Source of the DNA: a virus
Taxonomy: Duplodnaviria > Heunggongvirae > Uroviricota > Caudoviricetes
Length of the DNA stretch: 59,077 nucleotides
Direction: 5' to 3' (one strand)
Virus record (IMG/VR): IMGVR_UViG_2690316267_000014
Shown here in pieces: positions 3,001 to 15,000 of the stretch. The first letter of the stretch is position 1. Every line of letters begins with the position of its first letter. Position numbers: made by a program.

Positions 3001-6000
3001 AAGGTTTGTTTTCATGACCGCTTTATAGCTGTAACCAGTACCGGAGAACAGCCAGATGCTATGGGATTCAGAAATTCAGCATCATGCCTGATAGAGGCGA
3101 AGTGTTCTCGTGCTGACTTGTTAGCAGATAGAAAAAAGCGTTTTCGTAAAAATCCGTCTCTTGGAATGGGCGACTGGCGATTCTTTATTAGTGAGCCGGG
3201 AATTATTTCAATTGAGGATTTACCACCTGGCTGGGGGTTACTTCACGTTGTTAACGGAAGAGTACGGAAAGTACATGGGTGGCCCAAGGGTAATTGCTGT
3301 TGGGGTAATCCTGACGATAAGCCATTTACTGGAAATAAGCAGGTTGAATGCGATTACATGTTATCTGCATTAAGGCGCATGGAGTTGAGAGGGCACCTTA
3401 ATGAAATATATGACGGTGTAATTGTTAATAAGAAAGAAGGAAACGCGGCATGATCACTATTACCAAAGAGCGACTACTGACAATCAAGCAGTGGCGCGAA
3501 ACATACGGACCTGGTAGCAACGTTGTACTGCCAGCAGAAGAAGCGGAAGAACTGGCACGAATTGCTCTGGCAGCGCTGGAAGCCGAGCCGATAGGTTTCC
3601 GTTGCAGGCGCAATGATAACCTTGGTGATTGGAGTTACGTATATCATCGAGAGCCAGATGATTTTGAGCGCAAACATTTAGTGATAGAGGGCATTTACGC
3701 CGCCCCTCCAGCACCAGTAGTACCGGAAGAAAAACCAATGCCTAATCCTCTTAGCATGTACGCGGTTGATGCTGTTGCCGCTATTGCAGAGGTGAGAGGC
3801 TGGAACGCCTGCCGTGCCGCTATGCTTCAGTCCGGAAACTTTCGGGAAAACAAGAATTCGTCAACCAATAATTTTCGGGAAATCGCGGAAACGTCAACCA
3901 ACTATCCGGTAATTCCTAGTGAGGTGTTGTCCGCAATCCTGAAGGTTGCCAAGATTCGTGCCGATTTCGATGATTTTGACGGTGACAGGCGAGGTATCGG
4001 TGATTGTCTGGATGAGGCTGAGCAAGAGCTTATCGTTACCATTAACAAATATGCCAGTCAGTTGGCAGCAGAACCGATAGCGACTAATGACGTTCGAGAG
4101 CAAACAGCCGTTCCGCCAGTTCCGGTAACTCCGGATGGTTGGATAAGCTGTAGTGATCGAATGCCAGAAATGGGAGAGCGACAATACTATGTGTTAGCAG
4201 CTGACTTTAAAAACAACTACCCACCAAGCATCCCCAACACTCAGGTCGGCGTATATGGCGACTGGTTTAATGATGGCAATCCCACTTGGGATGACGGTGA
4301 TGGCGAAGACCTGCATCTCAAAGAAGTAACCCACTGGATGCCGCTACCAGAACCGCCGAAGGAGGTACGCCAATGACCTAGCCTGAAGCATTTGCAATTG
4401 TAGTGGCTGCCATTTCGATCGCACTGATTGTTTTTGCGATTTGCCGCTGGGGGTAAAATAGTTCACCTGCATGGAGATTTGATGCCGGGGAATTGTGGGG
4501 GAGCATTCAAACCTCTCCCCTTCCCGGTTAAAGACTCCATTGCTTTGCGGTCAGAGAGATACATCAGCTTCATCAGCTTAATGAAACGCATAGATCCGCC
4601 ATGCTTTTTCAGCAAATACGCTGCCATTTGCGCAACTTTTTCTTCATTAAACATAAATCGGCTCTCTGTCTCACATGAAATACTCTTTCTGACTATATGT
4701 TAATAGCTCCGGTTATTACAGGTTAATGTGTGTTTATTTCTTAATCAGCCCCGCACTTCCGTACGGGGCCATTTCTGTTAATCCACTCCCACTTTTTTGT
4801 TGTACTCGCGGTTAAACCGATCCACGGCAACCTTCATATCCCGCTCTACCGATTTCACCATCGCCGCCTGCTGCGCCAGACTGAGAGAACTGTCGGCATA
4901 AATGGCATCGCGCTGTTTGCGCAAATCCTTCAGTCTCTTCCGGGTATCCTGCATAAGCCCGTTCATCAACAATTTTCCGTTGTTCTCGTCAATGAACGCC
5001 GTTCTTTCTGCACCGGTCAGACTCTTCAGCTCTGCGTGATACTGCGCAACCTCTGTCATCCGGTCGTACATCTTCTGCTGGTCTGCATACGGCATCACCT
5101 CACCCGAAATTTTCCCCAGGAAGGGCACCTGCTGTTCCGGTATATCAATACCATTCAGCGATTTCACCGCCGCATCCGTGGTTTTGGAAATGAAGCGCCC
5201 TGTCCCTCCGGAGATATAGTCAATCCAGAATTTCAGCGATTCCGGTGTGATATCCACCGCGCCGGGACGATACTGGCTGCCACCTGAGAACGCATTCAGC
5301 CAGGATGCAAACGCCTTGTACGCTTCTGGCGTTGAACGTCTTCCCAGCTGGCTGTCAGGTTTTGGTGTACCAAACGGCATGTTCTCCTGGTAAATCTGCG
5401 CCCCCATGAAGTTTTCATTCATGGCAAGGTTCGCAAACGGACGCAGAATGGTCGGTGCTGCGTTTTTCAGCAATGCCCCCGACAACGTTTCCGACGTCTC
5501 GCTGCCGATCGGGCTGAATGCCCCCAGGATACCGCCGACAACATTACCGGCAGCACGTGAAGCAGTCAGGTCGCCCGCTGCCACACCTTCAGCTGTATGA
5601 CCAAGCAGGAAGAACACGTTGTACCCGTAAGGCAGAGGAATACTCCAGTACTCACCGGCCTTGCCCCCGAACATCGATTTCATGATGACGAGGTTACGCT
5701 CTTTCACATGAGACGGTACTTTGTCGTACCAGTTAACCCCGTCATCATCCTCACCCGCCACACTGCGGTTAAGCGAGCCAAGCAGATAACCCGCTCCCAC
5801 AGCTGCAAGCACGATTTTCTGCGGTACATTGAGATTCTTCCAGCGAAGGCGCTCCAGTAACGGCCCGTCGCCATTAAGATGTCCGAGCGTTCTCACCAGG
5901 TTTGCGGTCCCCTGAATGCTGGCGTTGGCAAACATGTACAGCGAGTTCATCAGCATCCCCTGCTCACCACGACGGTTAAAGTTCACCGTCATGTTTTTGG

Positions 6001-12000: not shown

Positions 12001-15000
12001 CACCCTGCGCCGCATTAATCGTCCCCTGTTCCGTGGCATTTCTGACAATGCCGCTTTTAACGGTCTTCGCCGTGCCCCGCATCGCCAGATTAAGCAACTG
12101 AGCATCGCCCAGTTTTGCCGCCATGGCATTCACAGCCAGCAATTCAGGATCGGTTGCCAGTTGCGCACGCACCTCATCGGCAACACGCTCTTTTGCCAGG
12201 TCCATTTTCTGGCGGTCAGTAAGCTGCGCGTGCTGCGGATCTGCATCAATTGACAAAAAGGTCTGCTGAAATTTCGGTGACTTCGCCAGCTCAGAATAAT
12301 CCGCGTTAAGAACAGCATCTGCCGCTGCCATTGCACTCCGCCCTTGCGCACTGACAGTGGAATGGGTGATCAGGCCTGCCTGGAAAAAATCCGGCATTTT
12401 TTTATCGACAGCTTCGGCTGCCAGTGCTGTGGCTCTTTCCGGCTGCATCCCTGCCGCGATGTATTTTTTCTCCAGCCCGGCGGTCAGCACTTTTCGCAGA
12501 GTGACATCACCCAGCTTTTTAGTCACACCGCCTGCAACCATATCCGGTACAAGCGCACCAATCAGGTTAACCCCTTTCGCTACCCAGACCGCTGAATCAT
12601 CATATCCTTCAGTCATCGGTGTATTCAGCGCCCGCTGCGCCCCCGGCGACATCTTGCCAGTCAGCCATTCATCCGAGGCTTTAGCGCCGCCACTGACTGC
12701 CTTGCCTGTGACCTTCAGACCTTTACCGACAGTATCAGTAACCGCATTTTTTCCATCAGGCAGAGTGTCGATGACCTCATCCGCCCCCTTGCTGCCACCG
12801 ACAAAAATATCCTGAACAGTTGCTACTCCCGGCAGCCCCATACGGCTGAACTCATTTAAAATACGTGCCCCTGTTTTTACCGGGCTCTGAATCATCGCAT
12901 CACCGAGTCCACGGGCCATTTCCCCTGTCCCCCGGACGGACTGGGCGACACCTTTCCCCATAGTTGGCAATACATCGCCCAGGCTGAACGACGTGCTGTT
13001 GTCCTTCCAGCGATTGGGATCGGAGAAAAACACATCATAGCTGTCAGTCTCTCCCGGCTGCTGAATGTTCAGGCTGTTGCGGCTCTGGTTGCCAAATTGC
13101 GCTTCAGGGCGCTGTTCATCGGAATAAGCCATACAGACTCCATAAAAAAACCCGGCACAATGACCGGGTATCAGGAAATAGTATTAACGGGAATGGTGAA
13201 TTACTGCGCGTAATTCTGTTTCAGACCACGGATAAACTCAGATGCAGAGGCCGCGCTATCATCCCTGGTCTGTTCCCCCCTGGCCTTTTGAATACGGAGA
13301 AAATTCGCATACCCGTGTTCCAGCAATTTCTGATTCTGAGGCTCCAGCATTTCTGGCTGACGGGAGGCCACTTCTCTGGCAAATGCCTGCTTATCCGGAT
13401 CATCACCCGCCCAACTGGTAATCCCTTGTTGAATTTTTTGCTGCTGAATTTGCTGCTGATACTGCGGCAGTCCCATCGAAGCATAATATTGCGTCACTGC
13501 TCCCTGCGCATCACCGCCGTCCTGTGCAACCTTTATCGCTACCTGGCTGGCTCCTTTCTGAAGTTGATCCGCAGAAAGTCCCTGCTGCTTCGGCGTGAAA
13601 TAGCCGAAATTTTTCGAAATTTCCGCGAATTTACTGCGATCCCTGACAAGCTCAACAGCCTTATCAACAGGCACCGCCAGCACGGTTTGATCATCAGGAT
13701 GTGCACTGCCGTATTCCGTAACGGGTTTATGTGCTGTAGAGCCATCACTGTATGTGAGATCAAGGCCGATAAGTATGTACCCTTCCTGCTGTGCCGGTAC
13801 TATACTGCCAATCCTGGCCTCTTTTATCGTCTTTTTCCCGGTTGAATCGGGCATGCCAATACGCTGTTGCAGTTCCGGGCCAAACACCCCGGAAAGGACA
13901 TCAAGATTCTCCGGCGTATTAAGTGAAGCGATAGCCCTGTCTGGCTTGTCATCAAAGATTTTTTGCAGGTTGTTCACGGCCTGACCCGCTTTCGCTACAT
14001 AGCCATCATTCGCCATCAGCCTCAGCGGATTACCCTCTGACAACTGGCCGTAAAGACGCATTGCTGCATCCCGATCGCCAGCATCCACAGCCTTTCCAAG
14101 CGCCGCCATCACAGGCTGATCGCGCGCCAGCATATCGTTATACTCAAGCCGTCGCTGGTTGTATTTCTGCATCCGGAGTCGCTGCTGCTCCATACCCAGC
14201 GACGCATTCCGGTAATTCTGGTTGGCGTTAAACTCCCTTTCCTGCAGTGCATAATTACGGTCGTCGACTTTGGCTCTGTAATCAAAGTTCCGCTGATCAA
14301 CGTCTTTATTATGTTCAAACTGCGACTGTGCAAATTCAAAATCGCGCTCGTTATTTTTCTGTTGTTGAGCAAGCTGTGCTTCTCGCAAACCAAGTTCCTT
14401 ACGACGGGTCATTGCCTGGTCAACCGTGCTGAATCCGGCAAGTAAACCCTGTGCAAATCCGCTCATTCACCACTCCTTAAAACAAAGAACCAGCAATACC
14501 ACCTATGACAGCACCAATAGCCGCACCGGGGAGACCACCAACAGCAGCGCCCATAGCTGCACCCGTACCAATTCCCGTGCCGATATTCTGTTTGTTCTGC
14601 GCTTTCTGTTGCGCCGCCATCTGTTTGTTCGCGGCCTCAATTTCTTCACGTCGTCTGTCGGCATCACTTATTCCCTGTAATACCTCACGCCTCGACTGAT
14701 TCGCAATATCCAGTAAACCGTATCCCATATTGCCCCCTTACGCTGACACCAGTTTTCCGCCAACACTCAGTTGTTGTCTTGCAGGTGCAGAAGCCCCCGT
14801 CAGTATGTTCATCTGGCGATCCTGCTCTGCTTCACGGATACCATTTTTCGCGCCAGCAATTGCCAGAGCATTACGCAAACCCAGTGTGTTACTGTTGGGA
14901 TTATCCGGGCGGCTTACCCCGTATCTCGCCATCTGGTTATCCTGCGCCATCTGCGCTGTACGGAGACTGGAAGTGGCAAGGCCGCCCACCCGGGCAAGCT

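Follow-up and report, generated by a model that had tools for sequence, protein, structure and literature searches.

Location and identity of the giant gene

The DNA analysed here (the window) is a 59,077-nucleotide stretch of a virus of the class Caudoviricetes (IMG/VR record IMGVR_UViG_2690316267_000014), and its subject is a single giant open reading frame (ORF) to which a first-pass annotation, made from the sequence alone, had drawn attention. The 2,784-amino acid (aa) ORF described there was confirmed, on the minus strand, at the position listed in Table 1. With a length of 8.4 kb, the gene takes up approximately a seventh of the genome and closes the series of large genes in the minus-strand late block, where it is located downstream of homologues of terminase, portal, capsid, fibre, nozzle and needle genes. 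It was said to end the virion operon, which holds insofar as no other large late gene follows it, while a 63-aa ORF does follow it on the same strand. On the evidence given below, the favoured reading, with moderate confidence, is that the product has a polyvalent architecture and serves Sepvirinae-type short-tailed lambdoid phages as their giant internal virion protein, also termed an ejection or pilot protein.

A megablast search with the whole gene returned 186 phage records of 90-96% nucleotide identity, all of which were Shiga toxin (Stx)-converting short-tailed phages or close relatives (Sepvirinae, Traversvirus). At the amino acid level, identity was approximately 97% to gp35 of Stx2-86, 90.4% to gp47 (vb_24B_48) of phi24B and 90.8% to orf71 of VT2-Sakai/Sp5, which is ORF80 (ECs1242, VT2-Sap73); the Sakai protein, 2,793 aa long from the same MAYS start, matches the size given for ORF80 by Mondal et al. 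The giant protein is, judged by sequence, the orthologue of Sp5/VT2-Sakai ORF80, phi24B gp47 and Stx2-86 gp35. Likeness to these proteins extends over the full length, both HExxH motifs are kept and the genes occupy the same genomic position, after a 421-aa gene; differences within the protein are small substitutions, found chiefly in aa 1-500 and aa 1700-1900.

A further property of the protein is the complete absence of cysteine from its 2,784 residues. Twenty-four other ORFs in the window average 1.03% cysteine, from which the probability of finding none in the giant protein is approximately 3e-13. The same bias was noted among giant homologues, 99 of 117 of which contain no cysteine and 114 of 117 two or fewer. 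No strongly hydrophobic, transmembrane-like segment was found in the protein (Kyte-Doolittle scale, 19-residue window, threshold 1.4).

Table 1. Position of the giant ORF, its domains and motifs, and adjacent features in the window (aa numbering is that of the giant protein).
Feature	Position	Strand	Residues (aa)	Remarks
Giant ORF	4778..13132	minus		2,784 codons, uninterrupted ATG-to-TAA; 307 kDa; no cysteine
N-terminal conserved domain (N-domain)	11843..13132	minus	1-430	mildly Gly/Ala-rich; matches phrog_37568
Glycine-zipper-like stretch	11834-11917		406-433	zipper matches sub-threshold, E=0.07
Acidic Pro/Glu/Gln/Ala-rich linker	10463..11842	minus	431-890	pI 4.6; no Pfam family
LPD5 region	9563..10462	minus	891-1190	N-extension (891-1046) plus Pfam LPD5 (1047-1190)
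Arm-DNA-bind_4 match	9671-9739		1121-1143	weak
Zincin domain 1, CLCA_X type	8813..9619	minus	1172-1440	H1253, HEWFH, D1281, E1365, E1372; includes LPD1
Block FGFRGVQFGNYVE...GALAHEWFHSLDNYFG	9278-9562		1191-1285	
HEWFH	9299-9313		1274-1278	
Pfam LPD1	8843-9082		1351-1430	
Zincin-like domain 2	8213..8734	minus	1467-1640	HEIIHH and E1597; HExxxH family
HEIIHHAMEH	8483-8512		1541-1550	
MuF_C, PBECR RNase-like domain	7637..7915	minus	1740-1832	
C-terminal conserved module (C-module)	4781..7495	minus	1880-2784	100 kDa; mostly helical; includes LPD38
Pfam LPD38	5117-5734		2467-2672	
63-aa ORF	4463-4654	minus		3' of the giant gene; labelled hypothetical in strain AST198
Terminator-like GC hairpin, then T-run	13169-13150	minus		in 68-nt gap, just 5' of the ribosome-binding site and ATG of the giant ORF
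421-aa neighbour	13201-14466	minus		phi24B gp48 and Sp5 ORF79 by conserved gene order; no cysteine
83-aa neighbour	14477-14728	minus		labelled 'bacteriocin' in relatives; near-threshold YMGG glycine-zipper match
150-aa neighbour	14738-15190	minus		phi24B gp50 by conserved gene order; no cysteine
218-aa neighbour	15187-15843	minus		phi24B gp51 by conserved gene order; no cysteine

Essentiality and packaging of orthologues

The requirement for the protein is known from the work of Mondal et al. (2016; PMC5155283), in which each late gene of Sp5 was deleted in turn. Deletion of ORF80 abolished both plaque formation and lysogeny on Escherichia coli K-12 and could be complemented; the mutant still packaged DNA in DNase-resistant form, and its heads were of normal morphology. 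The protein is therefore not an accessory anti-defence factor, which corrects an emphasis of the first-pass annotation: tests limited to hosts with different defence systems would miss its core role.

That the protein would be carried in the virion, as had also been proposed, is supported through phi24B gp47, which is 90% identical. According to the passages on gp47 in a phi24B preprint (10.64898/2026.04.10.717836), this protein is abundant in purified virions, with 11-35 copies (mean 18.7) by a rough spectral estimate, and its peptides extend from aa 59 through aa 2673. In the same passages, gp47 is missing from the cryo-electron microscopy (cryo-EM) model and is proposed by the authors to be an encapsidated ejection protein, and diffuse density in the adaptor lumen is described that is gone in emptied particles. 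Statements of size in these passages are inconsistent (2,811 aa as opposed to '>3,000'), and neither of the two zincin domains described below is mentioned in them.

Domain architecture

Pfam scans covered the protein as a whole and, at E<=5, ten segments of it taken one by one. LPD5 (E=4.5e-43), LPD1 (E=7.6e-23), MuF_C (E=1.1e-16) and LPD38 (E=3.3e-48) were all matched far above their cut-offs, and all four families derive from the survey of polyvalent proteins by Iyer, Burroughs, Anand, de Souza and Aravind (2017; PMC5512222). Together with two zincin domains, these matches bear out the suggestion that the ORF encodes a multidomain polyvalent protein, i.e., several unrelated domains, including LPD families, joined in one chain that is phage-encoded beside virion genes. 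The segment scans left several parts of the protein without a family, namely the first 1,000 aa, the core around HEWFH, the domain with HEIIH and aa 1880-2460. They contained no MPTase-PolyVal match either, the only hit to a peptidase family being a sub-threshold one to Peptidase_M76. No meaningful match emerged from sequence searches of the PDB, for which the complete protein and four profiles (A1-A4) served as queries.

Several other identities were considered and rejected. The protein contains no Walker A motif of the form [AG]xxxxGK[ST] and no ATPase family in Pfam or NCBIfam, as would be expected of an AAA+ ATPase (COG1483). No tape-measure or tail-fibre family was matched in Pfam or PHROGs, and the orthologue is absent from the resolved phi24B tail. 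Pfam scans likewise contained no RNA polymerase domain of the N4 type.

The N-domain ends in the glycine-zipper-like stretch. Among 147 homologue representatives, 32, mostly giants, carry this domain N-terminally, and 17 of these have both conserved ends. An enrichment in Gly and Ala had been noted in this part of the protein; it is present, at a modest 22-24% G+A as opposed to 14-23% elsewhere. The linker that follows is probably disordered, as its composition suggests. In an AlphaFold2 (AF2) model, LPD5 forms two beta3-alpha units with predicted local distance difference test (pLDDT) values above 90. When the LPD5 segment was scanned alone, a weak match to Arm-DNA-bind_4 appeared (24.1 bits against a cut-off of 22.3), and LPD5 may be a DNA-binding module tied to the CLCA_X protease, an arrangement that would recall ArdC-N plus metallopeptidase (MPTase). 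The N-extension, LPD5 and the first zincin domain travel together and also occur as stand-alone proteins of 480-600 aa. Among giants, the parts recur in the order N-domain, variable region, [LPD5-zincin], HExxxH zincin, [MuF_C], C-module.

Two zincin domains

Two HExxH motifs were seen in the protein against 0.038 expected by chance from its own composition. Both were located where they had been reported, each is conserved in its family, and each lies within a zincin-type domain with conserved putative ligand residues. E1275 and E1542 are candidate catalytic bases of what are predicted to be two distinct zincin proteases.

The HEWFH block and Pfam LPD1 together make up the first zincin domain, one half each, since the alignment to NCBIfam CLCA_X (NF041907) spans both, with aa 1172-1427 aligned to 3-245 of 250 positions (E=5e-45). 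The score of 153.8 bits, despite full-length coverage, does not reach the curated cut-off of 260 bits, and the domain is therefore a relative of the NF041907 subfamily that stands outside it. The block had been described as conserved-looking, and in an alignment of 61 homologues, at least 90% of the sequences retain each of H1274, E1275 and H1278 of HEWFH as well as H1253, D1281, E1365 and E1372; H1253, H1274, E1275, H1278 and D1281 are invariant in the 12-sequence A4 alignment. The same pattern characterizes a widespread phage-type MPTase in the passages of Iyer et al. (2017; PMC5512222) on these enzymes, namely a His that ends strand 2 and an Asp three residues past HEXXH. In those passages, LPD1 is treated as a separate domain, whereas here it forms the C-terminal half of the zincin domain. 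CLCA_X proteins are phage- and plasmid-borne and often lie inside very long proteins (Lenart et al. 2013; PMC3650047); the motif given for that family is HExxHxxxD as opposed to HExxHxxD in the giant protein.

The AF2 model was computed for aa 1040-1720 with 61 aligned sequences and had a mean pLDDT of 81, with values above 90 for aa 1040-1440 and of 70-93 for the second zincin domain. Both HExxH motifs lie in modelled helices preceded by small beta-sheets. In domain 1, the predicted succession is that of a zincin fold, i.e., beta-sheet, HExxH helix and then a helix with the Glu ligand. Fold matches that extended over approximately 160 residues would correspond to domain 1, while those of approximately 80-100 residues could represent either domain. 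The nearest structural relatives of the zincin domains are protein endopeptidases, namely MtfA, anthrax lethal factor (LF) and Pro-Pro endopeptidases (gluzincins with an LF-like fold). Identity to these enzymes is 5-13%, and the giant protein differs from them by a long insert (aa ~1290-1340) between the HExxH and Glu helices, by the additional conserved His and Asp and by fusion to LPD5.

The family of the second domain became apparent from an exhaustive search with the HEIIH domain, which gave 334 representative clusters at E<=1e-3, mostly inside giant proteins, as opposed to a word-indexed search, which returned only 13 close relatives. Of the homologues retrieved, 117 of 147 are 1,400-6,000 aa long. 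HExxxH is present in 136 of 143 aligned members, with H1541, E1542, H1545 and E1597 kept at 99-100%. The query and its four closest relatives carry a one-residue deletion (RHEII-HH as compared with RHEVLAHH) that results in canonical HExxH spacing, and if the neighbouring His1546 is taken as the last residue, the motif of the query also fits HExxxH. The family matches the HEXXXH MPTase variant described in the relevant passages of Iyer et al. (2017; PMC5512222). In the AF2 model, the topology is beta-alpha-beta-beta-alpha(HExxH)-alpha, which is a minimal zincin topology with a conserved downstream Glu. A profile-profile comparison of domains 1 and 2 aligned equivalent strand and HExxH elements, with a probability (6.6%) that was not significant, and no duplication of the two zincin domains is therefore claimed.

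MuF_C domain and C-terminal module

MuF-C is, according to the part of Iyer et al. (2017; PMC5512222) that describes it, a BECR-fold RNase domain, the active forms of which are marked by a His within the first helix together with a C-terminal Ser or Thr. K1735, H1742 and S1806 are kept in at least 90% of 19 aligned sequences, and the MuF_C domain of the giant protein is probably an active RNase-like domain with the expected His and Ser. Given this fold and these residues, the label 'MuF-C metallopeptidase' of the phi24B preprint is mistaken, the peptidase domains being elsewhere in the protein. Membership in the MuF/SPP1 gp7 head protein family was also rejected, as MuF_C alone is matched and Pfam scans are without a MuF core domain.

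The C-module matches giant PHROGs of 3,427, 3,925 and 4,647 aa, and its homologues are 33-77% identical over the whole length, with 34 invariant alignment columns. In all 65 homologues of full coverage, the module is C-terminal, behind anything from 0 to more than 700 varied residues. Homologues of approximately 900 aa consist of the C-module alone, and others place it behind various effector domains. No solved structural relative of the C-module was found.

Other occurrences of the C-module were noted as well. In an unrelated 60-kb phage contig, a stand-alone version of 962 aa closes a virion block that opens with a crAss-muzzle-like protein, and in an Amphritea prophage, a version of 981 aa lies near the int/xis end. 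A metagenomic homologue (P0158) combines Phage_Tail_Tip (PF09327) with a C-terminal LPD38 module in one protein. PF09327 is also found in the needle-like protein of the window (18499-19767), which hints at a link between C-module and tail tip or else reflects an assembly artefact.

Neighbouring genes and prophage

The order of the genes upstream of the giant gene is kept in phi24B, VT2-Sakai and Stx2-86. These neighbours (13201-15843) match only unannotated PHROGs, and neither PHROGs nor Pfam assigns them a function. A run of internal-virion-like proteins had been proposed at this position; such a character is invisible from sequence and comes instead, via gene order, from virion proteomics of phi24B, since gp48, gp50 and gp51 are, in the passages of the preprint that list them (10.64898/2026.04.10.717836), part of the virion proteome and unplaced in the cryo-EM map. 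Sp5 ORF79, the counterpart of the 421-aa neighbour, is essential, and its deletion has the same phenotype as that of ORF80 (Mondal et al. 2016; PMC5155283). The glycine-zipper-like stretches of the 83-aa neighbour and of the giant protein itself may be membrane-inserting elements.

The hairpin just upstream of the giant ORF lies within the late operon and bears on how orthologues of the giant protein are annotated. The 13-aa N-terminal extension annotated in VT2-Sakai (MPGHCAGFFYGVC) is a translation of this hairpin, as is the extension in phi24B, and the database start codons of both are therefore probably wrong. On the other side of the gene, the N-terminus of the 63-aa ORF presumably resembles a truncated DUF4065/Panacea-type protein.

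The window appears to be a Sepvirinae-type prophage that is without an stx operon, since only 766 bp lie between a NanS-type esterase gene and a Q-like ORF (36903-40112) and the window contains no tRNA genes. In this respect it would differ from Stx2-86, VT2-Sakai and phi24B, as it does in the arrangement of att and int. The interval from the att end to the giant gene is occupied by ant, dksA, ead and DUF551 genes, with the integrase at the far end, unlike the situation in Stx2-86. A degraded copy of the same prophage is present in ynfG of E. coli AST198 (NZ_AP043606.1, 1750000-1799000; locus L002). This copy has lost the entire virion block, and what is left of the giant gene, namely its final 993 nt, carries the annotation of an LPD38 pseudogene.

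Discussion

Shiga toxin genes are disseminated by short-tailed Stx phages, and the giant protein bears on the question of how the DNA of such phages is delivered. Its identification carries some weight, as the protein is indispensable and contributes several megadaltons to the content of the phi24B capsid. According to the reading favoured here, one to three dozen full-length 307-kDa chains would lie inside the enlarged T=9 capsid, a step shown for the phi24B orthologue. After release of the tail needle, the cysteine-free chain would pass out of the particle in an unfolded or extended state by way of the portal-tail channel, either before the DNA or along with it; exit through the tail and unfolded passage through the oxidising periplasm are suggested by the cysteine-free composition and by the lumen density that is lost in emptied particles. 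The N-domain and the 900-aa C-module would form a constant chassis and be the source of essentiality, with a role in encapsidation, in contact with the portal or tail lumen and/or in a conduit across the envelope. The middle of the protein would be exchangeable cargo, i.e., LPD5 with the CLCA_X-type zincin, the HExxxH-family zincin and the PBECR (MuF_C) RNase-like domain. Once delivered, the two proteases would most likely act on the polyprotein itself, dividing it into working pieces, and/or on host proteins, and the target of the RNase-like domain would be host RNA. Cutting of the polyprotein has been proposed for MPTases of polyvalent proteins in the passages of Iyer et al. (2017; PMC5512222) that discuss them, and the protease and RNase activities assumed here are those predicted by conserved catalytic residues and folds.

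A more specific version of this scheme is put forward tentatively. The cysteine-free N-domain and C-module, aided by the cysteine-free gp48, gp50 and gp51, could constitute a previously unrecognised single-chain ejectosome with exchangeable cargo that replaces the three-protein system of T7 and P22. Once ejected, the chain would be cleaved by its two zincins, which would set free in the cytoplasm an RNase and a protease tethered to DNA (LPD5 plus CLCA_X). If this were true, the bookend design would explain hundreds of uncharacterised giants of 1,400-6,000 aa in phages of many bacterial groups.

Several points weigh against the identification as an ejection protein, and the chief difficulty among them concerns the tail fibre. 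Classical ejection-protein mutants of P22 and T7 still form tailed particles. Sp5 ORF80-mutant particles are not bound by anti-tail-fibre antibody, and a role in tail assembly was inferred from this result by the authors (Mondal et al. 2016; PMC5155283), which keeps tail assembly under consideration as a rival or an additional function. In addition, no sequence or fold similarity was found to T7 gp14-16, to P22 gp7, gp16 and gp20 or to any solved ejection protein. The evidence from phi24B also has its limits: apart from the roughness of the spectral copy number, six months of sample storage mean that the gel-slice profile could reflect either processing or degradation, and the peptide table gives totals rather than counts per gel slice.

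If the protein were mainly a tail-assembly factor, i.e., a scaffold, chaperone or energy-using machine for the short tail, its presence in the virion would be a by-product. The normal, DNA-filled heads of the Sp5 mutant, which nevertheless lack anti-tail-fibre binding, would be accounted for, as would the identical phenotype of the neighbouring 421-aa gene, and the 'AAA+ ATPase' (COG1483) match noted by Mondal et al. (2016; PMC5155283) would fit an energy-using machine. With no Walker A motif and no ATPase family in Pfam or NCBIfam, this last argument loses its basis. Moreover, the phi24B orthologue ranks by mass with the most abundant proteins of the virion, is represented by peptides from its whole length and lies outside the resolved tail, at least in the passages of the preprint that cover these points, and the domains identified here are protease-like and RNase-like rather than assembly-related. 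A primary function in tail assembly is thus considered unlikely.

The polyvalent architecture, with its protease and RNase-like domains, would also suit an injected anti-defence or host-takeover effector comparable to P1 DarB or ArdC that has no structural role in DNA delivery. The C-module occurs in a PHROG annotated as 'DarB-like antirestriction', and the weak Arm-type DNA-binding match in LPD5, beside a zincin, recalls the combination of ArdC-N and MPTase. Essentiality of the Sp5 orthologue for both plaques and lysogeny on E. coli K-12, where a phage-specific host barrier would not be expected, is difficult to reconcile with such a role, as is the effect of the mutation on tail-fibre binding. 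The N- and C-modules are, furthermore, far more conserved than would be expected of an effector engaged in an arms race, and we regard a purely effector function as improbable. Cell-wall hydrolases are common among podovirus ejection proteins. In the relevant part of the phi24B preprint (10.64898/2026.04.10.717836), it was proposed that the metallopeptidase domains digest peptidoglycan and so let the ejected conduit reach the inner membrane, and some polyvalent proteins do carry peptidoglycan-targeting domains, as described in passages of Iyer et al. (2017; PMC5512222). Since the nearest structural relatives of the zincin domains are protein endopeptidases and not cell-wall peptidases, this proposal is rated very low.

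The protein as such was already known. It was deleted in 2016, its families have been in Pfam as polyvalent families from 2017 onwards, and its detection in virions and the proposal of ejection date from 2026. As the packaged, injected and polyvalent nature of the protein had thus been published, the gain from the present analysis is refinement rather than discovery. The refinements concern the identity and boundaries of the zincin domains, the one-residue deletion in the second of them, the assignment of MuF_C as RNase-like and the lack of support for an ATPase, as well as the bookend architecture across giants, the C-module fold with no solved relative and the family-wide absence of cysteine. 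Published labels for the protein conflict ('AAA+ ATPase', 'tail assembly' and 'MuF-C metallopeptidase that degrades peptidoglycan'), and the domain map replaces them with residues that can be mutated, namely E1275, E1542, H1742 and S1806.

With the polyvalent proteins of Iyer et al. (2017; PMC5512222), as characterized in the passages devoted to them, the giant protein shares LPD5, LPD1, LPD38, MuF-C/PBECR and a location among late genes, and its two zincin domains correspond to the two MPTase variants described there, the second of them through its HExxxH family. Those passages present polyvalent proteins as effectors of early-phase conflict, whereas the Sp5 orthologue is essential for infectious particles, and they contain no reference to a cysteine-free composition or to N- and C-terminal bookends. 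The ejection proteins gp14-16 of T7 and gp7, gp16 and gp20 of P22 resemble the orthologues of the giant protein in their location within the capsid and in escaping symmetric reconstruction, and both are dispensable for the packaging of DNA while infectivity depends on them. In contrast with these proteins, to which it has no detectable similarity, the giant protein is without an RNA polymerase, lysozyme or transglycosylase domain in Pfam, and mutation of its Sp5 orthologue also abolishes tail-fibre labelling; several separate proteins may here be replaced by one giant chain. The virion RNA polymerase of N4, as described in part of the literature on polyvalent proteins, is likewise a giant encapsidated protein with MPTase domains.

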